Source of the DNA: Bacteroidales bacterium
GTDB taxonomy: Bacteria; Bacteroidota; Bacteroidia; Bacteroidales; JAFGXI01
Assembly (NCBI GenBank): GCA_016936665.1
Contig: JAFGXI010000009.1
Location: 86,648-150,647 of the forward strand
Length of the DNA stretch: 64,000 bases
Reading direction: 5' to 3'
Shown here: positions 15,301 to 44,600 of the stretch, in pieces
Layout of the letters: every line of letters begins with the position of its first letter
Numbering within the stretch: position 1 is the first letter of the stretch
Translations under genes and position numbers: made by a program
Notes under the pieces: model-generated
The model's input: only the letters and a program-made list of their open reading frames with translations
Database searches by the model: none
What the model was told of the DNA's origin: nothing

Positions 15301-15450
15301 TTCGAATTGAATAGCTTCTTCCGGTTTGTCGAATGGCACTTGTTGCCAATAGATTTGTTGTTCGTTACGAGCTTTCAAATGGTTTTTTGTCCATTGAGAA
15401 AATGATGATATACTAATCATCATAATAGATGCTAAAAATAAATGCCTCAT
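12313..15450 (-). CDS. T9SS-secreted BNR/sortilin-like repeat protein with PKD-like and CUB domains
   Basis: At least 7 SxDxGxTW-type BNR motifs (STNSGQTWSQ, SDNHGTNWTT, SINNGNTWTD, SDNAGTSWQE, SMDGGNSWEA, TRNGGTTWSN and others). A CUB-like domain spans aa 859-967 (12571..12897; ...CNYDYLSIYDG...GKFCG...). The C-terminal ~85 aa form a type-A T9SS sorting domain (IKIYNMLGKLI...GIYIVTV). I moved the start to the ATG at 15450 (MRHLFLASIMM...); the track start at 15471 is a TTG. Confidence 0.8.
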   Translation of the reverse strand: MRHLFLASIMMISISSFSQWTKNHLKARNEQQIYWQQVPFDKPEEAIQFEIEKTKDPHTQQVPKDRLRFAMDYTKSLSMQKSAIDDVIWTERGPNNVGGRTRAIMFDPNYTNNHKVWAAGITGGLWYNTDALNNGQWQNVNDFWDNIAVSTLASDPSNTTVFYAGTGEGWTSKSVRGLGIWISTNSGQTWSQISSTNNDMFYNVQKIIVTETGRVLAATSYGLMVSDNHGTNWTTLMEGYFGDIEKAGNGYLYASLGKNGTEGFIYKSINNGNTWTDITPQFSVQERIELAVAPSNPLKIYAVASVGTAVSWMASSDNAGTSWQELNIPMYLEQSCSPSTYYDYTRGQAWYDLILAVHPQDEDVLYAGGIDWHMSMDGGNSWEAVSYWTGGCLPYVHADQHIFAFVPNDASKMLVGCDGGVFLIEDADTYDWTTNHLNNGYNVTQFYGTAIENESGSNYMLAGAQDNGTHRFNTSGLGNTVRVTGGDGGFCFIDQANSQYQITSYVYNNWRLSTNGGNSFSYYPSTSDGYFINPADYDSEEKVLYASTRKDSIYVSRILVDGADGEYLPISGGLNSGRISAVKVSPFQTDVIFVGTSYGDVFKIINAQDAPSSTNLDPNQQLPSAYISSVELGSSENQILVTYSNYGISSVWETRNGGTTWSNIEHNLPDMPIRWGLYNPENTNQIMLATETGVWSIDDITTQTIWEPVNTGLANVRCDQIKYRTSDKMVAVATYGRGLFTTDAFADPQPVAVFEASQTVACLTDTIYLIDHSTKNPTQWLWSISPSNFTYVLGTNAESQNPIIVFQNAGLYSISLTATNGSGSGSVTEENYLEINNECRYVMDDDDDLYLCSGTFFDPGYTENYPSGSDYTITIYPENENSFIELSFLYFDLEYESDCNYDYLSIYDGASTAAPLIGKFCGSESPGYVSGINNLDGALTFKFHSDDYVEGLGWEAQISCSLVDHVDSKESNQFSIIPNPANQSIELSYIDKSVENIKIYNMLGKLIQQEYIDNHQNQKVDVSDLDEGIYIVTVGTRNQKLVIKR

Positions 15451-15526
15451 TAATCTGTGTTCTTTTTGCAAAAATAAAGATAGTACGCCTAATAGACTAA
15501 ATTCTATAAAAATAGTTGCATAAAAA

Positions 15527-18500: not shown

Positions 18501-19785
18501 ATGCAAATACGCTTAAGTCGAAAGCCGAAAGCAAATCGTAATATTTTAAATTAAACACGCCATCGTTGCCATTCAAATAAGACGGTACAAAAACAATCTT
18601 AACTTTTTTACTTTTGAAATTAGAAAACCGGTATTCGTCCAATTTTCGAATTATTGGATCGTGCTGAGGGTCGAGCAACTGATGGGTTAAAAACTCTTGT
18701 TCCATATGGTATGGCAAGCCATTGTGAATGGCGTCGAATATACCGTTAATAGGGCCATATATACCGGCAGGAACCATAATAAAAGCAAAAACATTTCGGT
18801 TTAGGTTATCTTCTTTTTCGAGTAGCATTAAAGCATCTAAAAACAAGTCGATTCCTTTATTTTTATACTCGTAGCGACCGCTAGTCACTATTTTCAAATC
18901 GTCGTCTTGTGGTTCTTGACCGGTAACAACTTTTGCCGCTTTATAAAGTATATTTTTAGCCGATTGTTTTCTTTCTTCCCAAGTTTCGTCTTTAGGAATT
19001 AAAAATTCATCGAATCCGTTTGGTGTTACTATATCGACTTTTGTTCCAAGTAAGTTTTCACTTTCTTTTGCAGTGATATCGCTAACCGTAGTATAAACAT
19101 CGGCATGTTGTCCGGATAGTTTTTCGAGCGAAAATTTGGCCGAAATATTAAATTGTTTGGCTATTTCTTTGCCTTGATACTGACTTTGATTGGTATATAG
19201 CGGCCACCCATTTCCTGCTATCGATCGTCCTAATGCAGTTGCATGTGTGGTAAAAGCCGTACTTATATAGGGTGCATATTCTTTTAAAAACAATATTCCT
19301 GCGCCTGTCATCCATTCGTGAAAATGAGCAATAACTTTTGATTTTTTAAGTTGGTAAAATCTAACAAAGTCTTTTATCAACATACCGGCAGAATAGCCAA
19401 ACATTGCAGGTTCTACATAATCCCATCCCCCCGAAAGAGAATCTAACTTATAAGACTCCCAAAAATGAGCAAAGATCTCGTTTTTATAGTTAAAGTAAGG
19501 GGTAAAATCGACAAGTATTACGATTGGTTTTGATGGAATATTCCAAAATCCGGTACGTACTTTAATTTTATTGTCGCCTAAGTTTTTTTTCCACTCGCTA
19601 AATAAGTTTTTATCTTCGATAAACTCATCGTTTTTTTGCTCTCTCCACACATCAGGCCCGATCAGAATAAAGTGATCGTTTAAGCGATCTTTCAAGGATT
19701 TTGCTTTGGTTGCTAATACCGTATGGATACCCCCAACTTTGTTGCAAATCTCCCAACTGGTTTCAAAAATGTAATCTGCTTTCAT
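15571..19785 (-). CDS. Fusion protein: GT3 glycogen synthase (aa 1-~535) plus GT35 alpha-glucan phosphorylase (aa ~575-1404)
   Basis: The N-terminus MKADYIFETSWEICNKVGGIHTVL is the eukaryote/Bacteroides-type glycogen synthase signature. The C-terminal half starts with NLWWSWN, the N-terminal region of alpha-glucan phosphorylases, and contains the PLP-lysine motif EASGTSGMK. It is one uninterrupted 1404-codon frame. Confidence 0.85.
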   Translation of the reverse strand: MKADYIFETSWEICNKVGGIHTVLATKAKSLKDRLNDHFILIGPDVWREQKNDEFIEDKNLFSEWKKNLGDNKIKVRTGFWNIPSKPIVILVDFTPYFNYKNEIFAHFWESYKLDSLSGGWDYVEPAMFGYSAGMLIKDFVRFYQLKKSKVIAHFHEWMTGAGILFLKEYAPYISTAFTTHATALGRSIAGNGWPLYTNQSQYQGKEIAKQFNISAKFSLEKLSGQHADVYTTVSDITAKESENLLGTKVDIVTPNGFDEFLIPKDETWEERKQSAKNILYKAAKVVTGQEPQDDDLKIVTSGRYEYKNKGIDLFLDALMLLEKEDNLNRNVFAFIMVPAGIYGPINGIFDAIHNGLPYHMEQEFLTHQLLDPQHDPIIRKLDEYRFSNFKSKKVKIVFVPSYLNGNDGVFNLKYYDLLSAFDLSVFASYYEPWGYTPLESLAFNVPTVTTSLAGFGKWVQQSHYSETNAVKVINRTDDNDNDIVNAISKYVLNYSQLGQADVKENRINAEKVSQTALWTNLIDYYLKAYDIALDHQSKRFNPDDIYELAEVKVEENIEMNLEPNWRSFEVESNVYEDFSGLFEMADNLWWSWNFHHTDIFKDIDKNLWIEVNYNPKKFLNSLPYSTFEKLAKDKVFVEKYHQLVNTFNAYLDEKKNAKGPQIAYFSMEFGFHDALKIFSGGLGILAGDYLKEASDSNVNMVGVGLLYKYGYFKQAITNNGEQLSKYEAQLLSEMPISKVKNEEGDQVIISVNLPGRELKIKLWKTHVGRIILYLLDTDFEDNLAEDREITHYLYGGNNENRLKQEIVLGIGGITALRAIKIDADLYHLNEGHAAFIGLERINKLMYESYFTYQQAVELVRSTSLFTTHTPVPAGHDVFEENLMRRYLSYYHESYGISWDEFFALGKAEKTDFKFSMSNLATHLSQEVNGVSWLHGEVTKEMFNNLWKGYFKQELPVGYVTNGVHFPTWTSKYWKSLYAKVSNNQLIDHQDHQELWDKIYDIDDAKIWDTRNKHRIKLIEYLKERVRENWIQRYDNPKTMVDIINKLDSNVLTIGFARRFATYKRAALLFSDIERLSKIVNNPKQPVQFVFAGKAHPNDKPGQDLIKQIVLISKQPEFVGKILFVENYDMELARKLVQGVDIWLNTPTRPLEASGTSGMKAVMNGGLHFSVLDGWWMEGYQEKAGWALSEEKSFQDQGMQNQLDSSTIYYLLENEIIPKYYKRNKEDVPVEWVSFIKNSISKVASQFTTKRMMNDYYERFYNKLYKRSTALKDNQFEALKMLVEWKNTIAERFEQIKVLKICSTTNDQKILKAGVDTHIEVVLDLNDVKPEEIGLQVVITYPFIEDNDNVEIVNFNVYKKDESKITFRAKIKPNEVGRINYGIRMFPVCDSLEYQQDSGVLKWL

Positions 19786-19799
19786 CCCTTAAAATTTAA

Positions 19800-20984
19800 T
19801 TATTTATTGATTCGAGTAATAAAGTCGCTTAACACGTTCATGAAATTAATGTACGCGGCATATGGTGTTTGGTAAGGATTAAAATATTTGTGAACATCGC
19901 CATCGGAGAACCATTTAGTACACATATAATAAAAATGGTCGCTGGTTTGTAGATAAAGCCAATCTTTTAACAGTTTTTCATCGCCAAGTTCCTTGAGCTT
20001 ATCTTCTAACTCGTACAATTTATCGAAGGCATCGTATTGTAAGTCGTTTCCTAACCAAGCCGTCAAGTCTCTTTCTTCGTCGGCCCAAGATATTTCGTAA
20101 GGTACATCTAAAGGAGAAACGACATCGTAATGTTTTACGACTTGATTTGGGGTTAAAAACTTGAAATCGGTATGTTTTAATACTTGCTCCGGTAAAGCCC
20201 TCATAAATTCGAATATACCAGAGTCTGCCCATTGGTGCTCGCCAAAAGTTTCGTAATCCATAAAAAGGTTAATTACCTCGTTGTCGGATTGCAAAGCAGA
20301 GTTGAGCCAGTCGGTATATTTATCGACTGTTAATGGCCACTGATCCCATGCTGAGTTGGAAAAACGGAAGGCGATATCGTCGCTTAAGGTATAGTTTTTA
20401 AGTAATAATTTTAATTTTGGGTTTATTACATTCGCATACAAATAGTTTGGGCTTTTCCATCCTAAAATATGTTTAGCTCCTTCTGTTATCATTCCTTTAT
20501 AACCCATATTATGCACCATCTCTCCAATTCTGTTTGAGTAAATGAGCTCTGTATTTCTGAAAACAGTGGGTTTTTGTTTAAAGTGTTGCTCTATTTTTTT
20601 TCTATGCTCACTTACTTGATGCTCAAATTCCGGCTTGCTTTTAAGCGCAGATAATGAGTGTGCATAGGTTTCTGATAAAAACTCTACTTGACCGGTTTCT
20701 GCCAATGCGATAAAGCTATCTAAGACTTCTGGTGCATACTGTTCGATCTGATCGATAAATACCCCGGATAATGAAAAACTGACTTTAAAATCTTTTCCGT
20801 ATTGTTTTATCAAGTCTAGTAATAAAGCATTGGTTGGAAGGTAACATTTTTGTGCAACCTTCTTAAGTATTGTTCTGTTTGAATAATCGTCGAAATAATC
20901 GTGGTCGCCTCCTATATCGAAGAAACTATATTTTTTTAGTCGGAATGGTTGATGAACTTGAAAATAGAAACAAATAGATTTCAT
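19800..20984 (-). CDS. Glycoside hydrolase family 57 protein
   Basis: N-terminus ICFYFQVHQPFRLKKY together with FMDYETFGEH. Confidence 0.75.
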   Translation of the reverse strand: MKSICFYFQVHQPFRLKKYSFFDIGGDHDYFDDYSNRTILKKVAQKCYLPTNALLLDLIKQYGKDFKVSFSLSGVFIDQIEQYAPEVLDSFIALAETGQVEFLSETYAHSLSALKSKPEFEHQVSEHRKKIEQHFKQKPTVFRNTELIYSNRIGEMVHNMGYKGMITEGAKHILGWKSPNYLYANVINPKLKLLLKNYTLSDDIAFRFSNSAWDQWPLTVDKYTDWLNSALQSDNEVINLFMDYETFGEHQWADSGIFEFMRALPEQVLKHTDFKFLTPNQVVKHYDVVSPLDVPYEISWADEERDLTAWLGNDLQYDAFDKLYELEDKLKELGDEKLLKDWLYLQTSDHFYYMCTKWFSDGDVHKYFNPYQTPYAAYINFMNVLSDFITRINK

Positions 20985-20989
20985 GATAA

Positions 20990-22270
20990 TTATAGTAATG
21001 AGTTGTATACTTGAATAACATTATATGCTGCATTTTCCCACTTCAAATGGTCAATTTCTGTTTTGCCATAGGTTTTAAACATTTTGGAAATACCATCGTA
21101 GTGCAAAAGAGCGTGAATAGAGTCTGCCATAGCGTCGATATCCCAAAAATCGATTTTGATGGCATGATTTAAAATTTCCGATACCCCCGATTGTTTCGAG
21201 ATAATAACAGGAACCTGACTTCTCATTGCTTCAAGAGGAGATATCCCAAATGGTTCTGAAACAGAAGGCATCACATAAACATCGCTAATAGAAAAAAGCT
21301 TGTTGACCATTTCGGGTTTTAAAAATCCAGCAAAATGGAATCGATCGCCCATTCTTAATTTTGCGACCCTTTCTATTGATCTATGCAACATATCGCCTGT
21401 TCCGGCCATGACAAACCTAACATTTTTGTCCTTTTGTAATACTTTTTTTGCAGCTTCAATAAAATATTCCGGTCCTTTCTGGAAAGTGATCCTTCCCAAA
21501 AATGTAACTATTTTTTCGTCGAAATGTTTTGTAATGTTAAATTCTTCGAGTTCGACCGGTTCAACAGCATTGTGTACTGTAAAAACTTTACTTGGATCGA
21601 TACCATATCTTTCGATTACAATTTGTTTGGTTAAATGACTTACAGTAATCACTCTATCCGCCTCTTGCATCCCTTTTTGTTCGATATCGAATACCGTTTG
21701 ATTGACGTGCTCTCCACTTCTATCGAATTCTGTAGCATGTACATGAACAACTAAAGGTTTTCCACTGGCTTGCTTTGCAGCAATTCCGGCAGGGTAAGTA
21801 AGCCAATCGTGTGCATGAATAATATCAAACTCATGGTCTTTAGCAATTGTTCCGGCTACAATGGCATACCTTGTAACTTCGGTAATAAGATCGGCTCCAT
21901 ATTTACCCGAAAATGTAAAATGAGTTTCGAACGCTTCTTCTTTAATGTGTTCTTGACTTATTTTAAAAGATTGTTGAATATATTTTTCAAAAATTTGCGG
22001 ATCGAGATAAGGTAGTAAAGTTGAATCGATTTGTAGATAAGTAATGTTTTTCCAAAACTCATCGAAGGATTTTCGCGTCTGAAAAATTGTTACTTTTTCT
22101 GCATCTGTTAATTCAACATAGGTTTTGTCTTCGTCGCCGAACAATTTTGGTACGACAAAAATAACTTCTGCCTTATGTTTAGAAAGTCCTTTAGTTAATC
22201 CATAGCAGGCGGTACCCAAGCCTCCGGTAATGTGAGGAGGAAACTCCCAGCCAAACATGAGTATTTTCAT
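20990..22270 (-). CDS. Glycosyltransferase (GT4/GT5-like, glycogen-locus associated)
   Basis: MKILMFGWEFPPHITGGLGTACYGL, a C-terminal MPSVSEPFGISPLEAM E-x7-E region, and the locus context. Confidence 0.75.
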   Translation of the reverse strand: MKILMFGWEFPPHITGGLGTACYGLTKGLSKHKAEVIFVVPKLFGDEDKTYVELTDAEKVTIFQTRKSFDEFWKNITYLQIDSTLLPYLDPQIFEKYIQQSFKISQEHIKEEAFETHFTFSGKYGADLITEVTRYAIVAGTIAKDHEFDIIHAHDWLTYPAGIAAKQASGKPLVVHVHATEFDRSGEHVNQTVFDIEQKGMQEADRVITVSHLTKQIVIERYGIDPSKVFTVHNAVEPVELEEFNITKHFDEKIVTFLGRITFQKGPEYFIEAAKKVLQKDKNVRFVMAGTGDMLHRSIERVAKLRMGDRFHFAGFLKPEMVNKLFSISDVYVMPSVSEPFGISPLEAMRSQVPVIISKQSGVSEILNHAIKIDFWDIDAMADSIHALLHYDGISKMFKTYGKTEIDHLKWENAAYNVIQVYNSLL

Positions 22271-22366
22271 TGGTTCAAATTTGTGTCGATGTTCGATTAA
22301 TAGTTTACTTTTCTATAAGGTCAAAGTAATATACACTGTGGTCGAACATGTTCCGTTTCATTAAAG

Positions 22367-24322
22367 TTACTTATGGTTATTTCTTAAATCGTTTATAATA
22401 GATTTTATTCTTAAAAGTTCTGCCACACTCCATGCTTGAGAGATCGTTCCTCCATATTGATGTGGAGGATCTCCATCGTATACTTCGGACACTGTACCTA
22501 AACCATGTTCAAGCATATCGGGTTCAAAATTTTTATAGATCTGCTCTACAAAATTGATTGCAGATTCGCCAGAATAAACTTTCAAATAAGCATCGACAAA
22601 TCCTCCTAATAGCCAAGGCCAAACTGTACCTTGGTGGTATGCTCTGTCTCTTTCTTCTTGATTGCCTTTGTATTGGCCTTTGTATTGCTTGTTTCTGGGT
22701 GTTAGTGTTCGCAAGCCTTTAGGCGTGAGTAACTCTGACTTTACTTTATCAACAACACATTTAAAGCGATCTTCCTCTAAAATAGCATATGGCAAGCTAA
22801 CTGCAAAAATCTGATTTGCTCTTTGATTAAAGTTAACATCTTCGAAATTAACAAAGTCGGCCACTCTTCTTTGCATATCGTCCCAAAAAATGGTATTAAA
22901 TGTCGCTTTTGCTTTTGATGCAATGTTTTGAAGCTCTTCGGCTAGTTCTTTTTGCTTATTTAAGACTGCTAACTCAGCTGTGAATAATAACGCGTTATAC
23001 CATAAAGCATTAATTTCCACAGCATAACCGGTTCTGGGCGTAACGGGTTCTCCAAAAACAACGGCATCCATCCATGTTAACCCATGTTTACTATCGCCAC
23101 CGTAGATTAACCCGTTGTCGTGCAATGCAATATTATAGTGTGTTCCTCTTTTAAAGGTGTTAATGATACTTAACATACTATCTGAGAAGAGTTTCCAAAT
23201 GGCTTTTGCATCATTATTTTTAGAGTAATATTGCTGAATACTCCAAAAATACCAAAGCGGGGCATCTATAGAATTATAACTGGCAGCATTATCTGCTCCA
23301 ATGTTTGGAAACAAACCATCTTTAATTTGTGAGCTCATACTTTTAAGCACTTCCAAGCATGTTTTATTATCGCCTATAGCACAAGTTAATCCGGGCAAAG
23401 CAATAAATGTGTCTCTTCCCCATCGGCCAAACCAAGGGAAGCCTGCAATAATCTCGGTATGTTTGTTTTGTACAATAAATTGTTTAGCAGCATGAGTTAA
23501 ACAATTGTCGAGGTCGTTTCTTGGAATTCGTTTTTTAAGTTCAGACTGGTATTTGAGCTTTAGCCCTTTTGTTTTTATTTCTTGTAGCCCGGCGGCTATG
23601 ATAACAGTTTCTCCCTTTTTAATATCGAACTCAAACATTCCCGGCATTAGTAAATCCTCTTGGTATTCGTAACCTCTTGCTTGTTCTTCTTGGTATTCTA
23701 CCTTATAATACCAATTAGGGAAATGTACATACTCTACTTTTTTTGAAGCTTGAATGTACAAACTGTCGTATGCAGGATACAACTTAAATTCGGAACCATT
23801 TTCTCTTGATTTAAAACCTGTATTTACTTCAAAATTAGCATGACTCAATTGATGAAAATTACGAAATGCTAAAAATGGTTTTACTTGTAGCTTTGTAGAG
23901 CTATGTGCTTCTTCCAAAGTATAACAGATTAGTATAGTTGGTTCGTTTTCAATTAATAAATACTCCTTTTTAAGAATTACCCCTCCGACTCTATAAATAG
24001 TGTGAAAATTAGGTTCTGCTTTGAACTCCTTGATGTATTTATGCCCTTTGGGCTCAAATACACCTCCATGATATTTTCTGATACCTAAGTTAAATGCCTT
24101 TCCATTTTGAATGACAGTTTCGTCGACCGATGATAAAAAAACATGTCTGTCTTGATCGATTTGAGGTTGAGGCGCAACTAGTAGACCATGATATTTTCTT
24201 GTGTTGCAACCAATAATAGTGGTGGATGCGTACGAACCAGACCTGTTCGAACGGATAATTTCTTTACTTAAAGAGTACGATAAGTTTATCAATTGACTTT
24301 TGTTAAGGTCAAGAAAGCTCAT
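22367..24322 (-). CDS. Glycogen debranching enzyme (amylo-alpha-1,6-glucosidase family)
   Basis: 651 aa with FPWFGRWGRDTFIALPGL and AYHQGTVWPWLLG motifs. Confidence 0.8.
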   Translation of the reverse strand: MSFLDLNKSQLINLSYSLSKEIIRSNRSGSYASTTIIGCNTRKYHGLLVAPQPQIDQDRHVFLSSVDETVIQNGKAFNLGIRKYHGGVFEPKGHKYIKEFKAEPNFHTIYRVGGVILKKEYLLIENEPTILICYTLEEAHSSTKLQVKPFLAFRNFHQLSHANFEVNTGFKSRENGSEFKLYPAYDSLYIQASKKVEYVHFPNWYYKVEYQEEQARGYEYQEDLLMPGMFEFDIKKGETVIIAAGLQEIKTKGLKLKYQSELKKRIPRNDLDNCLTHAAKQFIVQNKHTEIIAGFPWFGRWGRDTFIALPGLTCAIGDNKTCLEVLKSMSSQIKDGLFPNIGADNAASYNSIDAPLWYFWSIQQYYSKNNDAKAIWKLFSDSMLSIINTFKRGTHYNIALHDNGLIYGGDSKHGLTWMDAVVFGEPVTPRTGYAVEINALWYNALLFTAELAVLNKQKELAEELQNIASKAKATFNTIFWDDMQRRVADFVNFEDVNFNQRANQIFAVSLPYAILEEDRFKCVVDKVKSELLTPKGLRTLTPRNKQYKGQYKGNQEERDRAYHQGTVWPWLLGGFVDAYLKVYSGESAINFVEQIYKNFEPDMLEHGLGTVSEVYDGDPPHQYGGTISQAWSVAELLRIKSIINDLRNNHK

Positions 24323-26178: not shown

Positions 26179-27102
26179 TTACCATTTGTACGCACTCTTA
26201 TTAGTGTTTCCAAACTGATAAATAAATATTAACTCGTGTGAACCCTGACTTACATTACCGATATCGGAAAGTGTTATGTCGTAGGCATAACCAAATTTAA
26301 TTTTATCTTTTTGTACACCAACAGAAATGATAATGTCATTCGGGTCGAAAGCAAAATCTGAACGATAACCTAGTCCTAACCAAACAAAGTCTTTATAAGT
26401 TGTTTTTACGTTTAAATCCCACTGACCTTTGTTAGCTTCAATATATTTAAGTAATAAAGAAGGTTCTAATTTAAAATCTGATCCTAACTCAAAAATATAA
26501 CCTCCATGCAAATAATAATGACGGACTTGTCTATTATCAAACATATCGTTCATTAAGCTAACTCTTCTTCCAAAAAGTTGAAAAGAAGAAATACCAGCAT
26601 AATAATTTTTTGCATAGAAATAAATACCAAAGTTAGCATCGGGGACAATAAGCTTTTCGGAACCATTTAGCAATACTTGGTCGTTTGCATCTTCAACATT
26701 TTCAAGCTGACCTCTATCTAAATAAAACTGATATAAAGAGCCCGACAAACCAAAGCCGATTTTCATTTCATCGTTTAATTTAAGGTGATAAGCATAACTC
26801 AAATTCAAACCCGATTTGCTGATTGAGCCTGTTGAATAGTTGAAAATTTTTGCACCAACACCTCCTAAATCTTCACTAATTTTCATGTGAAAAGTTAAAA
26901 ACTGAGAAGATGGAGCGTTATCAATTCCTGTCCACAAACGCTTATATCCAAGAAAGATAGGCATAGATTCGTCGGATCCAACATAACCTGGATTTACTAA
27001 ATATTTGTTTTCAACAGTTTGCGAAAATGAACCCATTTGTTGCGCTCTTATTGAACTTAGGGCTACCGTTAAAACTATGATGATAAGAACTAATTTTTTC
27101 AT
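26179..27102 (-). CDS. PorP/SprF-family T9SS outer-membrane protein
   Basis: 307 aa. Signal peptide followed by AQQMGSFSQTVENKYLVNPGYVG, the family N-terminal motif, with a beta-barrel-like alternating pattern. It lies directly downstream of a type-B CTD cargo gene, which is the usual pairing. Confidence 0.8.
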   Translation of the reverse strand: MKKLVLIIIVLTVALSSIRAQQMGSFSQTVENKYLVNPGYVGSDESMPIFLGYKRLWTGIDNAPSSQFLTFHMKISEDLGGVGAKIFNYSTGSISKSGLNLSYAYHLKLNDEMKIGFGLSGSLYQFYLDRGQLENVEDANDQVLLNGSEKLIVPDANFGIYFYAKNYYAGISSFQLFGRRVSLMNDMFDNRQVRHYYLHGGYIFELGSDFKLEPSLLLKYIEANKGQWDLNVKTTYKDFVWLGLGYRSDFAFDPNDIIISVGVQKDKIKFGYAYDITLSDIGNVSQGSHELIFIYQFGNTNKSAYKW

Positions 27103-31448: not shown

Positions 31449-31616
31449 TTAAGAACCTGAATAATCCTCAGTTGTGTTATTAACATCCCCAGATAACGTC
31501 TTGGAAATCGATAGTATATTAAGCTCCGGCGTTTTCCAATTTAATTTGTTTATAAGCTCTTCATCAACTTCTTGAATTTGCTTTATGTCTTTGTTTTCTG
31601 AACCTTTTAAATTCAT
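31449..31616 (-). CDS. Candidate lasso-type RiPP precursor peptide (55 aa)
   Basis: Manual translation gives MNLKGSENKDIKQIQEVDEELINKLNWKTPELNILSISKTLSGDVNNTTEDYSGS, from ATG at 31616 to TAA at 31451..31449. The leader has W(-15)xxP(-12)xL(-10)...T(-2). The core is SGDVNNTTEDYSGS, with Glu9 as the only acidic residue at a ring-competent position. A -7 box sits at 31650..31657. The ORF is divergent from the cyclase gene. Confidence 0.6.
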   Translation of the reverse strand: MNLKGSENKDIKQIQEVDEELINKLNWKTPELNILSISKTLSGDVNNTTEDYSGS

Positions 31617-31649
31617 ATATATTAGACTTTAGTGTTTGTACAAAAGGAA

Positions 31650-31657
31650 CAAATTTA
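31650..31657 (-). promoter_or_regulatory. -7 promoter box (TAAATTTG on the minus strand) for the precursor operon
   Basis: TAnnTTTG match about 33 nt upstream of the precursor ATG. Confidence 0.4.
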
Positions 31658-31669
31658 TATAATTTTAGT

Positions 31670-31677
31670 TATTTTTG
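31670..31677 (+). promoter_or_regulatory. -7 promoter box (TATTTTTG) for the cyclase gene
   Basis: TAnnTTTG match 27 nt upstream of the ATG at 31705. It lies back-to-back with the precursor promoter in an 88-bp divergent region. Confidence 0.4.
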
Positions 31678-31704
31678 TTAATAATAGATAGTAATTTATT
31701 CTGA

Positions 31705-33348
31705 ATGGTTGCCTTAATATGGTCTAAAATTGATTTAGATGCCGAAATATTTGATTTAATACATACTAATCATCAATTAAAAATTTATTTATTGTGGGTT
31801 AAAGAGTCAATTTCAGAAAAAATTGAAATAAAAGACACAAGCCTCCAATATGAATATAAAACGCATATATCTTCTCCATCAGGCATACACTCTATAACTG
31901 CTGACTTACTTAAAAATAGTTGCCAAATTTATAGAGGGGCAAATAGTCAAATACCAATTTACTATTATAAAAACGAGAACATCGCTTTAGTATCTAACAG
32001 CCTGAATGTTTTTTCGAAACTACCTGTTAATCTTACAATTAACTATAAATGGATTGCTTGTGGTCTTTCCGGAATTGCACCCGAAGCCCATGAGACTTAT
32101 TACGAATCGGTAAAAAAACTCCGTCCTGGTTCAGGTTTGCAATTGAGCAACTGGGAATTTTGCATTTCTGATTTAAAAAAAGATACTGATTATCAATTCG
32201 ATAATTTAGAACATGCGCTTTCTCAAACCGTTTTAAAATATATTGGGATCAATAATGGCTGTGAATTAAGTGGTGGGTTGGACTCTTCGGCAATTGCGGG
32301 TTGGTTATCGCACCATGTAAGTGGCAAACAAATTGTTTTAAATGCCTTTAATCAAGGTTTAAAACCGGGAATTCAAAAGCAGTTTTTTCCGTATGTTGAT
32401 GAAAGAAATTTTGCAAAGCTTGTTGAGCTATTCCACAAAAACCTTAAGATTAATATTGTTGATAGCTTCGAGAACAATTTGATTGATGATATCAAACTTG
32501 CAGGCTCCATACTAGCCTCACCTGCATTGAACAGCTTAAGTTATTTTAATATACAACTGTTTCGCGATGCTCGACGATTAAACGTATCTACATTATTTTC
32601 AGGTTTTGGAGGCGACGAAGCGATAAGTGCAAGAACATATCAATACCCTCAGTTTCTAATTTCTCAGCACCAATGGAAAGAATTACTCCAACTTTCGAAA
32701 AAAAATCCAATTTATATTTCGAAATCCATCATTAAATATTTTGTAAAAAAACCTAAATCGATCCCTGCTTGGAAATTTGAAAAATGGGATAATACATTAA
32801 TCACAAACGAACTAAAAAACAAAACCAAGTTCGAACCGTATTTTTTTAACAATTCATCAAAACTTGCTGAAAACTTTGAACAATTCTTATTAAATAAAAT
32901 CAATCATCCTGCCGTAAAATTGAGAGTAGAAGAAAACAGCAGTGTTGCGCGTCATTTTGGAATCGACTATGCTTATCCGCTTTTAGACGAGCAATTAATC
33001 TATTATTACTTAAATATTCCTGATTATAAAAAATTTAATATCAACCCCGATCGACACTTATTTCGACAAGCCATAAGCAAAGTGGTGCCCCCCGAAATTA
33101 AAAACAGAACAGACAAAACCTCTGCTACAATTCCGAATGTGTATTATCGTCTTTTAAATGAAAAAGAAAATATTATCGAAATTATTCACCAAGCAAAACA
33201 AACGGAAATGGCACAAATAATAAATCTCGAAAAAATGCTACTTCTGTTGAAGAGAGCAGAACTAAAAAATAAAGGCATCCATAATGGAAGATTAGATTTA
33301 AAAAATCTGTTTTTCGCATTAGGACTAATTTTATTCGAAAAAAATTAG
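31705..33348 (+). CDS. Asparagine-synthetase-like protein, lasso-peptide cyclase type (no glutaminase Cys)
   Basis: 547 aa. A PP-loop SGGLDSS sits at aa 189-195 (32269..32289). The N-terminus MVALIW lacks the Cys2 of true AsnB. A later FSGFGGDE motif is present. Size and context fit McjC-like cyclases. Confidence 0.7.
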   Translation: MVALIWSKIDLDAEIFDLIHTNHQLKIYLLWVKESISEKIEIKDTSLQYEYKTHISSPSGIHSITADLLKNSCQIYRGANSQIPIYYYKNENIALVSNSLNVFSKLPVNLTINYKWIACGLSGIAPEAHETYYESVKKLRPGSGLQLSNWEFCISDLKKDTDYQFDNLEHALSQTVLKYIGINNGCELSGGLDSSAIAGWLSHHVSGKQIVLNAFNQGLKPGIQKQFFPYVDERNFAKLVELFHKNLKINIVDSFENNLIDDIKLAGSILASPALNSLSYFNIQLFRDARRLNVSTLFSGFGGDEAISARTYQYPQFLISQHQWKELLQLSKKNPIYISKSIIKYFVKKPKSIPAWKFEKWDNTLITNELKNKTKFEPYFFNNSSKLAENFEQFLLNKINHPAVKLRVEENSSVARHFGIDYAYPLLDEQLIYYYLNIPDYKKFNINPDRHLFRQAISKVVPPEIKNRTDKTSATIPNVYYRLLNEKENIIEIIHQAKQTEMAQIINLEKMLLLLKRAELKNKGIHNGRLDLKNLFFALGLILFEKN

Positions 33349-36129: not shown

Positions 36130-39100
36130 TTATTTTCTTATAACTAACTTAACGCTGTATATATTGTCATTTTCAGATAATTTAACATTGTACATTCCTG
36201 CAACAATCGAATAATCGGTTATACTGAACTCTTCTCCTTCGAAATTAACTCTCACTGCATCAGAATAAATTGCCTTTCCGGTATTATCCGTAATATTCAA
36301 AATATATTTCCCTTCAGGCACATTTGCCTTAATTACTATCTCGTTTGATCCTGTTTGGAATGCAACAATACCAAACATTTTTTCCGACTGACAATCTACA
36401 GAAGTCATTGGGTGATACTCTGTTTTCCCATCGAAATCTACTTGCAAAAGTCTATAATATGATTTTCTACCATCGTTTGTATAATCTTCGTAAGTATATT
36501 TTGTTTCTACGTTACTATTTCCTGTACCTTCTATCTGAGCAATAAATTCATATTGATTTAAATCGTAACTTCTTTCAAGAACAAAATAATTGTTGTTGGT
36601 TTCTGTAGATGTAATCCAATCCACTTTTACAAAGTCATCATTGCAAGTAGCATTGAAACTTAAGAGTTCTACTGGCAAAGGCCATCCTGTATCTTTATGG
36701 ATATAGAAGGTTGAAAAACTTGTAACCTCGACTTCTGCATAATAACCCGAACCAATTGGACTAACAGAAAATGTAGCAGCTGGCATCAACATACAATTCG
36801 ACCATGTTCCGGAATCATCACACTTTGTAACTGTTAAATCGTTAACCGATAATATTGTCGGATCTGCCGCTTGCAGTGCAACGAATTCGGCATCGGTAAA
36901 ATAAATTCTTACTGTTGCTGCCCCTTGAATAGAAGGTGTAATTCTAACCACTCGAGGCAAATAGGCTTGAGAATTATAATATTGAACAGCTCCGTAGATT
37001 GTAGCTTCCGCTTCGGTATCGAATAGACTAGTTCCTCCGGCAGCATCAAAAACAGAGGCTATTATTTCGTTGCTATTCGACTCGTTTACAATATAAACCC
37101 AATTATCCGGACTTTCTATGTTACATTCTCCAGATACGCCTGTGCTACTAACAATAGATGCAGGAATAGAAGGTCCACTCACCGTTACAGTCGTTGTAGT
37201 TGTACAACCAAAGGCATCTTCGATGGTTACATCGTAGTCACCTGCAGATAAATCCATAATTGTAGAAGTATTTTCGCCAGAATCCCAATTATATGTAAAA
37301 ATACCTGCTTGTGGAATACCTAAACCATCGACGGCTAATGCAGTAGCTTGTCCATCGTTGTTACCATAACAAGACACAGCTAAACTGTTATCATCAGGGT
37401 GTAAATCACTAATCCCTGCATATACAACTGCTCTTGACGTTGGGCATGCACTTGCTCCACCGGCAGATATTGAAACATCATTAATATACCAACCTGTACT
37501 GCCTACAGAAGCATCGGATGTAAAAACAAATGCGATTTCTAATGTGTTTGCTGTTGAAACATCTATTGGCCCTGTATGGGCAGAATACGCAGATGAAGAC
37601 CCGTAATACAGAGGCATACTAGATGAAGAACTACAAGCATTCCATAAGGGTTCATTATATTGTCCATCGTTACCGGAATAACTACCCGATGCCGGAGTAA
37701 ATTGTACCCACGCACCACCGTCTAATCGGTAAGCAACATAGCCATGGTCGCAACACGATTCTGTAACAAATTTATGAGTATAAGAAAGGGTTACCGATCC
37801 AGCCCAAGTAGAAACATCAATTATTGGAGAGTTAATTATTTGAGAAGAATTGCTGGTTGGATCTACAGCAAACATAGTTCCATTTCCGCCATCGGTCGCC
37901 CATACCCAATTATATGAGCCAATACATGGCGCTGTGGTAGACCATCCTTCTAAATCCGAATCGAAAGTAAAGTTAACATCAGAAAATGAAGGAACTACTT
38001 CTGCTACATAAAAAGAATCTGGAGCCCATAAATTTGAAATATCATAAGAGCTTCCTGTATTCACCAAGGTTCCACCTGTTGCAGCATCGTACCACTCTAA
38101 TGTTCCAACACCATTAGCCAACAAAGTAACAGGGTCGCCGGGAACACAAGCATGATCGTCGTTTACATTTGGTGTACCAATAATGTGTATATGAACTTGC
38201 GCAGTATCTGAGTTACCAAAACCCAAACCATCGTCAATAATAACAGTATAAGTGGTGCTAGCACCCGGTGATACATCTGCTGCCGGATCTAAATCGGTCG
38301 GGCCATAAGACCACGTAACAGTTTGTCCGTCGGTAGGACAAGAAATTTCTACATTATCTAAGCCCCAATGGTCAAATACAAAATCTGTTACTTGTTCTTG
38401 ATGAAATCTAAATTTGGTAGCTGAAGAAGCGGCTAGATCAGGTACATCGAAACAATAGTTGCCCCAACTAACAAAATCGGACGATATGTTTTCAGCAACA
38501 CTGGTTCCTGAACCTACGAATGAGTTTGAAGGGTATTGCGAACCATCCGGGCTAAAATAAGTAATGTCTGTCCATGTTGCGCCATCATCTGTCGACCACT
38601 GTAAAGAGACGCCTTCATCTTCTTCGTCAGGTCCTTCGCAAGGTGTCGCATTGCCTTGAACAGCCATCACAAAATCGAAACAAATCTGGCATTCTTCCGA
38701 AATAGAATAAGGTTGAGTTATTAAATCGCGAGGGAAAGTGGCGGCATCGCCAATCCATAAATAGGACGTTCCATCTTCGGAAGCAATACAAGGGTTATCG
38801 AATGCGGGATTAGCATTAGATTCCCATCCAACTCCCATTGATCCATCATCAAAATTATTATCCATTAAATAACTGCAACTACCAACTGCAGCAATATCTA
38901 CAGATGTTCCTGCACAGATATTAAGTGTATCGTAAATGCCATCGGCTGTAGCCTCTATATGGCAAGGCTGACCAACAACAACGGTCACTGTATCGCATGC
39001 AGAAAAACAAGAGCCATTATCTACTGCAGCATAAAAAGTAGTTGTAATTAGTGGAGAAACATCGATATTTGTTCCTGTACCAAGCAAAGCCCCTTGGCAA

Positions 39101-41055
39101 TCTGCCTCGAACCAAGTTAATGTTCCACCTGCATAACCACCTGTTAGTGTTGAGGTTTCTCCAGCTAAAATCGCACCAGGGAAAGCAGCAATTGAAGGAG
39201 CATTGGGCGTTGATAACATTGTAACGCTGACATCGTCTCTATTACTGGCACATGAGCCTGTAGAGAATGTTAAAGTTGCATCGGCATACCCTGCTGTTTC
39301 TGTTGTTCCTCCAAACTGACCTGAGCCTTCGTAATGAAAATACCATCTGTTCTCCCAAGGCGAAACCGTAAATGATGCCATATCCGACAAATTAGTAAAA
39401 GCACCAGCTACACTGGTTGTACCATCGCTCAAGTTTAATCTTACCAATTGATCGGTACTATTGTTAGCATACACCACACTGTAATTGCAGTTATCGTACT
39501 CTGCAACTCCCCAAGTCGCCCAGTTTTCTGAAGTTGATTTTCCGGGCGATGCCACTACACCAAAGTCTGTAACTTGACCTGTTGGTAAATCGATTCTCCA
39601 AAAATTATTGCTAGTTCCATCTTGCAATATCACAAAACCGTAACCGGCATATATTCCTGCATCGGTAACCGTATTGTTTAATGCAATAGCCGACGATAAA
39701 TTAATCGTAACACCATCCCATGCTAAATCTTCATTAAGTAATCTTAACTGAGTAACGTTATATCCTGAAAAAGATGATCCATCGACAGAGGCTGAACCAT
39801 TGTAAATCTCATATAATTGACCTGTTTCTAGATCGCTAAACAAACCGTCTTTTCTGGTTAAAACAGTAGCTGTAAGTAAAGATAACGGCAAATCCAAACG
39901 AGCTGTATTATTGTCTCCAACAACATATAAATAATCCTGAGTTATTGCTATACCTCCTCTGTCATCACCTGTTGCTGTATTATGATCGACAACATAGTAG
40001 TTCGTGTTTAAATAGGAAGCTCTAAATTCTCCTTGATTAACGGCCTCTACATAATAAGTAGCATCTGCAACAAGATTAATATCGTACGATTGACCGGTAT
40101 GGAGGAGGTTTCCTCCTGTTGAAGCGTCATACCAATTATAGTCTAAACAATCGTCGCCATAGGCAACTAATGTTACATTGCCTCCACAAAGTGAGGTGTC
40201 GTTGATAGAAGGTGTAGAAGGCTGAGATTCGACAGATACTGTTACACTTCCTGCTCCAGTCGACCAACAAGATTGACCAGCATCGTATGCTCTTAAATAA
40301 TATGTTCCAGAAGTTGTTACATTAAATGGGGAGCTAGAATTGCTCATATCAGTACCCGAAGCCGATGTCTGCCAAAACCAAGTAATGCCCGCTGCAGGTG
40401 ATCCTGTAAAAGACAAATCCCTAGGACCACAAGTGTTTGCCGATGCCGTAGGATTAGCAGGATTGGCAGGAGGTGTACACAACTGAGTTCCAACAACTGT
40501 AAAATCGTCTATATTCCATCCTTTATAAGTTACAGAACCATCTGTTGTTCCGATTCCAAATCTAACTTGAAAATTAGCATTGCCGTCTGCATAAGCGCTT
40601 ACACTATAAATTAAATTAGTCCATGCAGATTCTGAATAAGAACCCCCATTCGCCCAAACCGATTGCCACGAGGAACCATTGTAAACCTGAATATACAAGT
40701 GATCGTAACTACTACTTTCGCAACCTGAATGGCTCCAAAAGTTAAGACTTACAGAGGTATAGTTTGAACAATCTATTACCGGAGAAACCAGCCAATAAGT
40801 TGTAGATAAACTGTTAGGATAACTGGAATTAATGTATGTTCCAATGATATAATTATCGCTAGTTGCTGTATGATCAGCTGTAGGATTTGCAGCTCCACTA
40901 GAAGCTGCTCCTCCGGAAGTAGCATTACTTCGTGCCCATCCTCCACTTCCATACCCTGTCCAACCTAAATCGGTTGAAAAGTCGTCTGAAAAGACCGTTT
41001 GAGAATATGATTCAAACGAAAAAATAAGAATTACAAAAATGATAAAAGACCTCAT
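36130..41055 (-). CDS. Giant T9SS type-A cargo protein (jelly-roll/MAM-like, Ig-like and one SprB-like repeat)
   Basis: 1641 aa with a signal peptide. Repeated modules of the form GWxxxxxxxWxxxxxxGG...F.WxxxxCESS..D.L.V. It ends in a type-A sorting domain (KYILNITDNTGKAIY...GMYNVKLSENDNIYSVKLVIRK). Confidence 0.75.
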   Translation of the reverse strand: MRSFIIFVILIFSFESYSQTVFSDDFSTDLGWTGYGSGGWARSNATSGGAASSGAANPTADHTATSDNYIIGTYINSSYPNSLSTTYWLVSPVIDCSNYTSVSLNFWSHSGCESSSYDHLYIQVYNGSSWQSVWANGGSYSESAWTNLIYSVSAYADGNANFQVRFGIGTTDGSVTYKGWNIDDFTVVGTQLCTPPANPANPTASANTCGPRDLSFTGSPAAGITWFWQTSASGTDMSNSSSPFNVTTSGTYYLRAYDAGQSCWSTGAGSVTVSVESQPSTPSINDTSLCGGNVTLVAYGDDCLDYNWYDASTGGNLLHTGQSYDINLVADATYYVEAVNQGEFRASYLNTNYYVVDHNTATGDDRGGIAITQDYLYVVGDNNTARLDLPLSLLTATVLTRKDGLFSDLETGQLYEIYNGSASVDGSSFSGYNVTQLRLLNEDLAWDGVTINLSSAIALNNTVTDAGIYAGYGFVILQDGTSNNFWRIDLPTGQVTDFGVVASPGKSTSENWATWGVAEYDNCNYSVVYANNSTDQLVRLNLSDGTTSVAGAFTNLSDMASFTVSPWENRWYFHYEGSGQFGGTTETAGYADATLTFSTGSCASNRDDVSVTMLSTPNAPSIAAFPGAILAGETSTLTGGYAGGTLTWFEADCQGALLGTGTNIDVSPLITTTFYAAVDNGSCFSACDTVTVVVGQPCHIEATADGIYDTLNICAGTSVDIAAVGSCSYLMDNNFDDGSMGVGWESNANPAFDNPCIASEDGTSYLWIGDAATFPRDLITQPYSISEECQICFDFVMAVQGNATPCEGPDEEDEGVSLQWSTDDGATWTDITYFSPDGSQYPSNSFVGSGTSVAENISSDFVSWGNYCFDVPDLAASSATKFRFHQEQVTDFVFDHWGLDNVEISCPTDGQTVTWSYGPTDLDPAADVSPGASTTYTVIIDDGLGFGNSDTAQVHIHIIGTPNVNDDHACVPGDPVTLLANGVGTLEWYDAATGGTLVNTGSSYDISNLWAPDSFYVAEVVPSFSDVNFTFDSDLEGWSTTAPCIGSYNWVWATDGGNGTMFAVDPTSNSSQIINSPIIDVSTWAGSVTLSYTHKFVTESCCDHGYVAYRLDGGAWVQFTPASGSYSGNDGQYNEPLWNACSSSSSMPLYYGSSSAYSAHTGPIDVSTANTLEIAFVFTSDASVGSTGWYINDVSISAGGASACPTSRAVVYAGISDLHPDDNSLAVSCYGNNDGQATALAVDGLGIPQAGIFTYNWDSGENTSTIMDLSAGDYDVTIEDAFGCTTTTTVTVSGPSIPASIVSSTGVSGECNIESPDNWVYIVNESNSNEIIASVFDAAGGTSLFDTEAEATIYGAVQYYNSQAYLPRVVRITPSIQGAATVRIYFTDAEFVALQAADPTILSVNDLTVTKCDDSGTWSNCMLMPAATFSVSPIGSGYYAEVEVTSFSTFYIHKDTGWPLPVELLSFNATCNDDFVKVDWITSTETNNNYFVLERSYDLNQYEFIAQIEGTGNSNVETKYTYEDYTNDGRKSYYRLLQVDFDGKTEYHPMTSVDCQSEKMFGIVAFQTGSNEIVIKANVPEGKYILNITDNTGKAIYSDAVRVNFEGEEFSITDYSIVAGMYNVKLSENDNIYSVKLVIRK

Positions 41056-41681: not shown

Positions 41682-44600
41682 CTATTCGATATTTAATTTT
41701 GATACAAAGTAATTATTTGCATTATAAATACTTACAATATAAATTCCTTGACTTAAATGAGCGTTTAAACCCAACACTTGCGAGGCATGAGAAACTTGAT
41801 TTATTTTTTGAACTAAAACAACCCTACCCAGCTGGTCGTATAATTTAACAGTATATTCACCTATCGGAATAATTGTTTCGACTTGAATTTCGTCTTGCTC
41901 AGTTTGATATGACTTCACAAAGTAAGATAGATCATCTTTAGAGCATTGACAGGATTTTACGTTATAAATTGTTTGTTTACCATCCAAATCCAATTCTTTT
42001 AACCTATAATACTCAACTGAGGCATCGAATTGCTCGTCTCTTACTTGGTACTTTTTAGGATATGCTTGATAAAAGTCTGGTTGAATTACTTCTATTTCTT
42101 TGTAATTCTTGGCATCTATACTTTTTTCAATAACATACTCTTTTAACGAAACTTCGGAGGCAACTTGCCAAGAAATAGATTTAGCCTGACTGTTACAATC
42201 AACTCTAAAATCGATCAGTTCTATCGGTAATGGGAAGTCTCCAATTCCGATTGCAAAATCAGAAAATGAACTTATTCCGTACCTTGAGGCATAACCATCG
42301 GATAACATTCTACCTGCACCTCCATTGGCGTTTAATGAACCTATGCTTTCTCCATACCATTCAGACGCTAAATCGGATGTGTGATTGCGTTTTAGAAGTC
42401 CAAACTGGTTGTCAGCCAATCCTGTAAATGCATTACCAATTGGAATTCCTAAACCGTCGAACCCTTGCCCATCATCTACAGTTAAAAATATATCGTACGA
42501 ACCTCCCGATGGTTGAGCATTAGGTATTATTTCCCACATGCCTTCTGTGCTCACCGAGACGTATGGTGTTCCAAAATCTATAGCTCGTGTAGGGTCGAGT
42601 GAGCCAAAATTGTTAAAACTACTATAAAAATGAATATCTAAGTAGGAACTGCCTGATAAGTTGTGATTTTGCAAATCAGCTAAAGCATATCTGTTCGATA
42701 CTCCAACCGGGAAATGGTATAAATTAGTATTATTTGCAATGTAGGCTCTTAAGTTTCCATTGATGTAACTAGAATAATTCCCTTGTGTAATTGCGCTACC
42801 AGAGGTATTGAGCACTTCTAGCTTGTATGTACTAGTGTGAATAATACCGTTTGTGAAAGTAATTGTACCAGCAGTGTTAATTCTTATATCGCTGTTTAAA
42901 TTTAATCCTGCACCAGAATTATTCATTGTAACATTGTGCCAAGTCATGACAGAACCAGGACTGTAGGCTTGCGCTGCATTTCCATTAAATACTAGTGTAC
43001 TGTTTGTAATGCCTGTAAAACTAGTAGAACCGGATGCATTATTAAAATCGCCTCCTAAAGTCAATTTAAGATCATTTAAGTTAAAAACACTTGTTGAATT
43101 AGTGGTTGTAAAATCTCCTGTAACTTCTATATCCTGATTAGTCAATACACTTCCTGAGGATTTGGTCACAGTGAAATTATCGAAAGCCGAAGCCCCCTGC
43201 AAACTACCATCTAAGGTTTGAACCCCAGAGCCCATCCATATTACGGTTGAGCCCGGACTTGCATTTAAAATCCCTGAATTGGTATAGTCTCCATAAACTT
43301 CGAAAGTTTGAGTCGGGTCGATAGTTAAATTTGAACCTCCGCTAATAGTAAGCGATTTCACTCTTGCATTATCACCATTATTAGGATCTACAACATCGAT
43401 TACCGGTTGATAAACTGAAGATGCGATGACGTTAGCATCTATATTTTCATCTGGATAATAGGCACAATCACCCCAGTTCATAGGATCGTACCAAGATGTG
43501 GAATTACCACCTCCCGTCCAAGTTAAACTTGTAGGAACTCCTCCGGGAATTGTAATAGGAGAACTTCCTAAGTCTAAATCGAAACCAGAAGTGCTATTCG
43601 AAAAGTTTTGTACAACTAAAAAATACTCTTCTCCCGCCAATACGTCTAATTGTGCTTCGAAAGCAGCTCCAAAGCCACTGTAAGCAGCAGGAGCTGTTCC
43701 ATCGGAAGTGCTGTACATACCGGTAACTCCTAAATAGCTATAATTACATCTTACAGGAGCCGCAGTTCCATTGGCTATCTCTTCACAAGTTACCGCAGAG
43801 CTCCCTACCATTTGATATAATAAAAAGTCATAATCGGTTTCATCCGAACCATCCCAATCGTTAGGAACAAGCGTAAAGTCAAGAACACCATCCACACCTA
43901 TTTGTATATGGTACCATACTGCACCTCTTTCTCCACTCGTACAATCGTTACTTCCGTCGAAATCGCAATAATTTCCAATTGCCTGAAAACCGGGATCTCC
44001 AACTGCAAAATGACTGTCGCAAACAGGAATTGCATTATCCACACCGCAATCTTGCCCATAAACTATAGGTAGTCCTGCCGAACCATCTGAAATGGTAATA
44101 TTAAAATTACCAACATCATCATTTTCTCCATCAACTACAACATAATAAGTATTGCCGGAAGTAAGACCACTCACAGTAAAACGAGAGTTTTGATAGCTAT
44201 AATCACAAGTTGGGGCATCTTGATTGCAATCTACATACGTTAAATTATCGCATGTTCCGGAGTAAATAGCAAGCTGTGTACTTGCTATGGTTCCCAAGAT
44301 TGTTGAAATTGCAACTGAACCAGAAACTGGTGCTGTAAACGTATACCACAGTGTATTTCTTGTTCCAGTTGTCCAACACGATGGTACAGATGAGGGCTCA
44401 TTGGCATCATTCGAGCATTGGTTATTTCCAGATGCGCTAGAGCCAATGGCAATAAATTCCGCATTACAAGGTTCGTCGTTTGCTGAGACATCTGACGTAT
44501 TGGTTGTAAACGAATATACGGTACATGAGCTTGCATTTCCCGCAGCATTGTATGGAATAATTTGCCAGTAATAAGTGGTTGCCGGAGATAAAACTGTATA

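Follow-up and report, generated by a model that had tools for sequence, protein, structure and literature searches.

A putative lasso-type RiPP precursor gene paired with a macrolactam synthetase gene and followed by a type IX secretion adhesin gene in a Bacteroidales genome

In clusters of the paeninodin/pseudomycoidin type, an HprK-like kinase phosphorylates the C-terminal Ser of a lasso peptide, a nucleotidyltransferase homologue adds a hexose, and a sulfotransferase is sometimes present (PMC9266682; PMC8498205). Leader elements of the W/Y-x-x-P-x-L type and a Thr are read by B1 and B2 in the systems that have been studied (PMC5067487; PMC10368454). Paeninodin is cleaved at T-M/A-G, the slash marking the cut (PMC5067487), and the spacing from leader motif to cleavage site varies between families, the motif lying at -17/-14/-12 in BsfA (PMC10368454). 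Pseudomycoidin, from Bacillus pseudomycoides (psm), was made without B1 and B2; a B-less A-C-K cluster in Stanieria cyanosphaera was mentioned along with it, and bulky C-terminal groups were proposed as the lock on the threaded form (PMC6993621). The Bacteroidota were flagged as underexplored for lasso peptides, according to a passage of PMC7533575 that cites Tietz et al. (2017).

The window analysed here is a stretch of 64,000 nucleotides (64 kb) on a 219-kb contig of a Bacteroidales MAG. The ORF under study, gene A in Table 1, encodes the peptide MNLKGSENKDIKQIQEVDEELINKLNWKTPELNILSISKTLSGDVNNTTEDYSGS (translation of the window) and is carried in the NCBI annotation as hypothetical protein JXR60_04305. 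The original prediction, made from the DNA letters and a list of ORFs, described it as an unlisted lasso precursor; the ORF exists with the identical translation, and "unlisted" holds for the track supplied to that reader but not for NCBI, where it was already annotated. The ORF is probably the A gene of a paeninodin/pseudomycoidin-type lasso-like RiPP from a reduced Bacteroidales cluster (probability about 0.7). The comparisons described below support the view that it encodes the precursor of a lasso-type RiPP paired with its own macrolactam synthetase, and largely support its place among the lasso precursors of the paeninodin type (C-terminal phospho-Ser), in a branch confined here to the Bacteroidales. 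The original lasso reading therefore stands in part: a RiPP precursor with a macrolactam synthetase partner is supported, with a paeninodin family as its sole curated match, but the cluster around it is non-canonical. The lasso-type assignment is sound as regards the way the system works, but with two defining genes, B1 and B2, searched for in the 64 kb and not found, the cluster cannot be called a canonical one.

Table 1. Features of the predicted lasso-type locus, with positions in the window.
Feature	Coordinates	Strand	Remarks
Precursor gene A	31449..31616	-	55 codons + TAA stop; weak NF033524 lasso_PadeA_fam match; conserved homologues beside cyclase homologues
Leader M1-L41 (paeninodin register)	31494..31616	-	W27 31536-31538, P30 31527-31529, L32, T40 31497-31499
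Core S42-S55 (SGDVNNTTEDYSGS)	31452..31493	-	G43 31488-31490, E50 31467-31469, Y52, S55 31452-31454
Divergent intergenic region, 88 bp	31617..31704		TAAATTTG 31650-31657(-) before A; TATTTTTG 31670-31677(+) before C
Macrolactam synthetase C, 547 aa, Asn-synthetase-like, shortened N-terminal domain	31705..33348	+	Pfam Asn_synthase (PF00733) E 3.7e-25
T9SS surface adhesin, 1424 aa	27155..31429	-	starts 19 nt past A's stop codon; Pfam SprB, CHU_C, SBBP
PorP/SprF-family outer-membrane shuttle	26179..27102	-	starts 52 nt past adhesin; PorP_SprF E 1e-68; TIGR03519 251 bits
HprK-like P-loop kinase K, 298 aa	25276..26172	-	6-nt gap after PorP/SprF; weak Hpr_kinase_C, HprK_rel, ScmC matches
PAPS-type sulfotransferase ST, 280 aa	24434..25276	-	overlaps kinase stop codon by 1 nt; Sulfotransfer_1 E 4.8e-29

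The leader holds the recognition element W27-K-T-P30-E-L32 and, further on, T40. Given cleavage after ...KTL, these residues stand at W(-15), P(-12), L(-10) and T(-2), as the original prediction had placed them. W27, P30 and T40 occupy invariant or nearly invariant columns in alignments A1, A3 and A4, and the pattern W..P(x9)T is present in 140 of 143 further relatives. Conservation of such small ORFs next to cyclase homologues had been proposed as a check on the prediction and was found in every locus with enough sequence, where homologous ORFs of 40-70 aa adjoin the cyclase homologue; the nearest cyclase relatives (31-34% identical) each have an ORF of 49-56 aa at the same divergent position. 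A profile built from six such peptides retrieved 24 small proteins, and 63 distinct precursors were found beside cyclase homologues in 96 loci annotated with custom HMMs. An exhaustive family-profile search of 1.84 billion representative proteins yielded 244 clusters (50% identity, E <= 1e-3), nearly all of whose proteins are 38-70 aa in length. An alignment-based rescan of the GTDB genomes gave 80 loci; an earlier scan of these genomes with a single cyclase protein gave no match, which indicates that the genome of the window is absent from the GTDB collection used.

The only curated family matched by the precursor is NF033524, paeninodin family lasso peptide (E 1.3e-4), at 21.6 bits and under the curated cutoff of 27 bits; 12 of 36 relatives match it too (E <= 0.01; best E-value 1.1e-4). 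The coding pattern was another proposed check, and the leader of two close loci (L003 and L014) gave a dN/dS of 0.107. The leader is evidently under purifying selection and the core hypervariable, as is usual for RiPPs. In the same two loci the spacer between A and C is ~98% identical (L003:1647-1900 vs L014:3229-3473). Between them the core-encoding 3' third of the precursor gene has diverged strongly and differs by a 9-nt indel, which points to local diversification of the core or to its exchange as a cassette. As a coding sequence, the ORF is evidently far beyond chance.

The predicted core contains the acidic residues D3, E9 and D10, so that E9 is the sole one at positions 7-9, as originally stated. 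This residue, E50 of the peptide, is position 9 counted from Ser42 and position 8 counted from Gly43. G43 and E50 are invariant alignment columns, with Gly43 present in 63/63 and 138/140 relatives, and the C-terminal Ser, which is Ser55 in the window peptide, is found in 54/63 and 100/140. By homology to paeninodin the window peptide would be cut as T-L/S-G and form a Ser1-Glu9 macrolactam. The original prediction of that ring agrees with the paeninodin register but names one of two registers; in the other the leader extends to include S42 and the ring is Gly1-Glu8. What we take to be the paeninodin core gives m/z 1209.50 (2+ ion), in agreement with the published 1209.5. Counted from the first core position of the paeninodin register, the distance to the conserved Glu varies across the family between 8, 9 and 10 residues, which implies either cleavage one residue later (Thr at -3; Gly1-Glu8 here) or 10-residue rings in some members. 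To our knowledge, neither Thr(-3) cleavage nor 10-residue lasso rings have been reported so far. An acidic residue at ring position 7-9 occurs in 62/63 and 140/140 members in the Gly register and in 53/63 and 134/140 in the paeninodin register, which leaves 9/63 and 6/140 members without any acidic residue at 7-9 in the latter. The ring register is therefore ambiguous: Ser1-Glu9 is the paeninodin register, and Gly1-Glu8 alone would give 7-9-residue rings family-wide. Cores of the window clade are 14-17 aa long. Five residues follow Glu50 in the window peptide, a tail at or below the length of the shortest characterised threaded lassos known to us, so that a threaded form of the predicted product is putative.

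The Asn-synthetase-like gene C lies 88 bp from A, the gap originally given. The TAnnTTTG box claimed for A is likewise present, 34 nt before its ATG (TAAATTTG), and both this box and the one before C may act as promoters. TAnnTTTG occurs 97 times in the window vs 88 +/- 10 expected; because the motif is not enriched, the box taken alone says little about A. The best NCBIfam match of C is the lasso cyclase NF033535, at 95 bits and far under the 525-bit cutoff. The ELSGGLDSS and SGFGGDE motifs are intact and the PP-loop motif is kept, and C is homologous to the cyclases of canonical clusters. Since C is shorter than its relatives, it carries no fused recognition domain. A and the divergent C, a macrolactam synthetase gene beside its precursor gene, are conserved partners.

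Gene A heads a minus-strand run of five tightly packed genes, followed by those for the T9SS adhesin, PorP/SprF, the HprK-like kinase (K) and the sulfotransferase (ST), with C divergent. The tight spacing suggests that A through ST form one operon, and no terminator-like site was found between A and the adhesin gene. The adhesin consists of a signal peptide, a 7-bladed SBBP beta-propeller (~aa 21-480), ~11 SprB repeats and a CHU_C type-B C-terminal domain (aa 1342-1422, E 3.7e-27). Its N-terminal 480 aa form a beta-propeller in the AF2 model (pLDDT 87), and the best match among solved structures is the CylK propeller. A protease or recognition element in the adhesin N-terminus was considered and rejected, as Pfam finds SBBP only and the model has no peptidase fold; custom B1 and B2 HMMs also gave no match to the adhesin, against a B1 or B2 hidden within it. 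Among 49 loci with enough sequence, 44 have an adhesin gene behind A in the same orientation (44 of 46 when Bacteroidota loci are counted), at a median gap of ~19 nt. It is absent in the three non-Bacteroidota loci counted (L064, L081 and L088), and other such relatives gave no adhesin match. In all related loci the adhesins are homologous from residue 1; that of the window is 41-46% identical to those of three window-clade loci (L003-L005), 31% to that of L001 and 24-27% to those of canonical clusters. The possibility that the adhesin and PorP genes are an insertion was rejected on the orthology of the adhesin, its recurrence after A and a PorP/SprF 56% identical to the orthologue in L001. 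The two genes between A and the kinase/sulfotransferase pair are evidently conserved cluster members, and the adhesin is inherited together with A and probably transcribed with it.

Cargo with a type-B C-terminal domain needs a cognate PorP/SprF shuttle (PMC12618676). In the window a PorP/SprF gene stands directly downstream of type-B cargo, and its product is presumed to be the cognate shuttle of the adhesin. The kinases of canonical clusters share 30-40% identity with K along its entire length; K keeps the GISGAGKT P-loop and is presumed to act on the C-terminal Ser. An HprK-like kinase in the cluster and a Ser at the end of the precursor, here Ser55, are marks of the paeninodin type. ST is 47% identical to the cluster sulfotransferases of other loci, and among solved structures TEG12 and the SULT1 aryl sulfotransferases come closest to it. 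Tyr as the general sulfation site was rejected, as core Tyr and sulfotransferase presence show no consistent link across loci. The non-Bacteroidota relatives L064, L073, L081 and L094 (from Desulfobacteraceae, Pelobacter, Acidobacteria and Desulforapulum) have a second, much longer ORF of ~560 aa directly upstream of the cyclase gene (e.g., L073:7843-9546) with a weak sulfotransferase-profile match; L073 has two cyclase and three kinase genes.

Three further proteins encoded in the window have a T9SS sorting tail: a trypsin-like protease, a CUB/BNR protein and a GEVED/BNR protein of 1971 aa. A fourth, of 1641 aa, has CHU_C-associated Ig_7 domains. The four genes lie at 12313-15471, 36130-41055, 41682-47597 and 58295-59965, all on the minus strand. 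With other T9SS cargo genes in the window, the adjacency of A and the adhesin gene is uninformative alone, and it is the conservation across genomes that carries weight. A 1404-aa fusion of a glycogen-synthase domain, DUF3417 and an alpha-glucan phosphorylase domain, at 15571-19785(-), belongs to a glycogen block that also encodes GH57, GT4/GT5 and a debranching enzyme (19800-24322). In a 616-aa protein encoded at 55607-57457(-), a class II fumarase/aspartase-type lyase is preceded by a cyclic-nucleotide-binding domain at the N-terminus. A 183-aa, homing-endonuclease-like NUMOD4-motif protein at 59982-60533(-) adjoins a 170-aa ORF without a family match (60654-61166, minus strand).

Neither PqqD (B1), the Transglut_core3 protease (B2) nor an ABC exporter was found by Pfam among the ORFs of >=90 aa in the whole 64 kb. 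Searches of the window by tblastn with two Bacteroidales B2 proteins gave nothing better than E 0.98, those with Bacteroidales B1 proteins gave no match, and none of its stop-to-stop ORFs of >=30 aa matched custom HMMs for B1 or B2 at E <= 1e-3. For these 64 kb of the MAG, then, the B/B2 peptidase and the RiPP recognition element (B1 or N-terminal B) of lasso systems are both missing. The original prediction treated the lack of B1 and B2 as a practical detail; it is evidently a clade-level trait instead. About ten loci are B-less (the window, L001, L003, L004, L005, L014, L016, L017, L020 and L045), with no B1, B2 or NTP_transf_5 on the assembled stretches, which for L016 amount to only 1.7 kb. 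They form one monophyletic clade in a neighbour-joining tree of 90 cyclases, at least five of the clusters sit between different flanking genes, and the assembly GCA_002754915.1 contains three of them. Cyclases of this clade are without ~50 residues of the N-terminal domain and have long branches. The leader recognition motif is equally conserved in the B-less clade and in clusters containing B1 and B2, which argues that some protein still reads it. Loci L020 (9746-16940) and L045 (9737-16153) are minimal, with cyclase, precursor, adhesin and PorP/SprF genes on a single strand and no kinase or sulfotransferase, and their precursors are still Ser-terminated. Their flanks are housekeeping genes (a cytidylyltransferase-like gene, Rrf2 and DUF559; in L020 also a FAD-binding flavoprotein and ATP synthase subunit a).

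Under the reading preferred here, the leader (W27-x-x-P30-x-L32 ... T40) would be removed, and C would adenylate the side chain of Glu50 and join it to the new N-terminal amine, that of Ser42 (9-residue ring) or Gly43 (8-residue ring). K would phosphorylate the C-terminal Ser55, as PadeK and PsmK do, and ST would add sulfate, with Tyr52 as one candidate site. The leader would most likely be cut by a protease not dedicated to the cluster, as in pseudomycoidin, and B1/B2 encoded elsewhere are nearly as likely. Because only five residues follow the ring, any threaded form may be held in place by a bulky, anionic modification at the C-terminus. Counted against this explanation are the bit scores of precursor and cyclase relative to their cutoffs (21.6 vs 27 and 95 vs 525), a five-residue tail below the length in all characterised threaded lassos known to us, the lack of an exporter in the 64 kb and the retention of the leader motif.

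That retained motif bears on the possibility of a canonical lasso pathway with split genes, in which B1, B2 and perhaps an exporter are encoded elsewhere and process the precursor in trans. A B1/B2 pair in trans is a serious rival, because the W-x-x-P-x-L and Thr elements stay invariant in the B-less clade and because orphan C-N pairs in related Bacteroidales genomes indicate that split arrangements occur in this family; the search for B1 and B2 also covered 64 kb of the MAG. The odds are nevertheless against it, given an absence common to a whole cyclase clade with varied flanks, its threefold occurrence in one assembly, shortened and long-branched cyclases that fit altered partner constraints, and pseudomycoidin, which shows that B1/B2 can be dispensed with. 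A further question is whether the product is threaded at all or is a branched-cyclic (lariat) phospho/sulfo-peptide whose tail is too short to trap. With five residues after Glu50, clade cores of 14-17 aa and no B1/B2 to pre-fold the substrate, an unthreaded product has a substantial chance, somewhat short of even, and pseudomycoidin made without its kinase and nucleotidyltransferase was not threaded, according to a passage of PMC6993621. Tyr52 and a modified Ser55 could plug the ring, however, and the cyclase family is a maker of threaded products. Threaded lassos of 13 aa also exist, huascopeptin presumably being one.

Decay after the loss of B1, B2 and N, with A and C making nothing, would account for the three genes missing relative to the relatives and for the shortened cyclase N-terminal domain. 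It is very improbable in view of an A ORF intact in every clade member, the constraint on its leader (dN/dS 0.107), the kept catalytic motifs of C and P-loop of K, and a reduced set that persists over deep divergence (cyclases 29-34% identical). Still less credit is due to the view, which the 19-nt distance and the lack of an intervening terminator might suggest, that the small ORF either arose by chance or regulates the adhesin gene as an upstream ORF, and has no connection with the Asn-synthetase-like gene. Hundreds of members retain the motifs of a lasso leader, the invariant Gly and Glu, and Ser at the C-terminus, and relatives of A stand directly after B1-B2 genes; the comparative data effectively refute this reading. 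An ncRNA or attenuator at A was also rejected, there being neither a credible Rfam match nor a terminator ahead of the adhesin gene.

The reduced cluster of a lasso-like RiPP is best described as new in being a B-less lasso-type cluster coupled to a T9SS adhesin; the lasso type itself is known. We know of no characterised lasso peptide from the Bacteroidota. A coherent clade that keeps A and C and drops two proteins long thought universal would be a natural system for testing whether maturation can proceed without B1/B2, as the pseudomycoidin work suggested. The near-universal adhesin gene a few nucleotides behind A ties RiPP biosynthesis to type IX secretion and gliding adhesins, and cleavage register and ring size could be tested cleanly in this family by mass spectrometry. 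Mining tools that require B genes may miss the B-less clade, a concern that the pseudomycoidin authors voiced for B-less clusters (PMC6993621). A more speculative, and on balance unlikely, account is that the lasso pathway was reshaped in this Bacteroidales clade into a minimal module comprising the precursor, its cyclase, the T9SS adhesin and PorP/SprF. Maturation would then proceed without a dedicated recognition element or leader peptidase, the peptide would work with the propeller/SprB protein (as ligand or cofactor, or through dependence in display or release), and ~7-14% of members would break the lasso rule by Thr(-3) cleavage or 10-residue rings.

Most Bacteroidales relatives have the gene order [PorP]-adhesin-A-B2(Transglut_core3)-B1(PqqD)-ST-K, with C and NTP_transf_5 divergent, and distant relatives too lie in canonical clusters with genes for PqqD, a Transglut_core3 protease, an HprK-like kinase, a sulfotransferase and NTP_transf_5. 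The canonical Bacteroidales clusters (e.g., L007, L011, L012 and L021-L039), whose gene set matches the known paeninodin/pseudomycoidin type, share with the window the precursor family, orthologous C, K and ST, and an orthologous SBBP/SprB T9SS protein directly downstream of A. Unlike the window, they have retained PqqD, Transglut_core3 and NTP_transf_5, the majority of their adhesins end in a type-A C-terminal domain and lack a PorP gene, and their cyclases are ~620-650 aa with a full GATase-like N-terminal domain, which is shortened in the window. Orphan pairs of cyclase and NTP_transf_5 genes occur in Bacteroidales MAGs (L028, L029, L031, L035, L041 and L048; e.g., L048:9581-12648), with no precursor, B1, B2, kinase or sulfotransferase gene within up to 10 kb; the L048 pair is preceded by LpxK, a PNP_UDP_1 phosphorylase and an MFS transporter and followed by DUF6272 and SiaC. 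The SprB/SprF pairs of Flavobacterium johnsoniae resemble the adhesin and shuttle of the window in having a large SprB-repeat protein with a type-B C-terminal domain and a PorP/SprF-like gene directly after it. A literature search for links of such pairs, T9SS or Bacteroidales with a lasso peptide, RiPP precursor or cyclase found nothing relevant.

The window shares with paeninodin of Paenibacillus dendritiformis (padeCAB1B2D plus a kinase gene) the aromatic-x-x-P-x-L element, a Thr near the cleavage site, T-x-x-G where leader and core meet, an acidic ring acceptor at about core residue 8-9, a Ser-terminated peptide and an HprK-like kinase in the cluster; Firmicutes clusters of this type can likewise carry a sulfotransferase. 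It differs in the absence of B1, B2 and the ABC exporter, in a core of 13-14 aa vs 23 aa in paeninodin, in a score under the NF033524 cutoff, in its Bacteroidales MAG host and in the T9SS adhesin and PorP/SprF genes within the operon. The likeness to pseudomycoidin lies in a cyclase that can act without B1/B2 and in a C-terminal Ser that is the target of a kinase. Genes for B1, B2 and a nucleotidyltransferase are still part of the psm cluster, whereas at the window all three are absent as a clade trait, and a sulfotransferase and the T9SS adhesin module are present instead.
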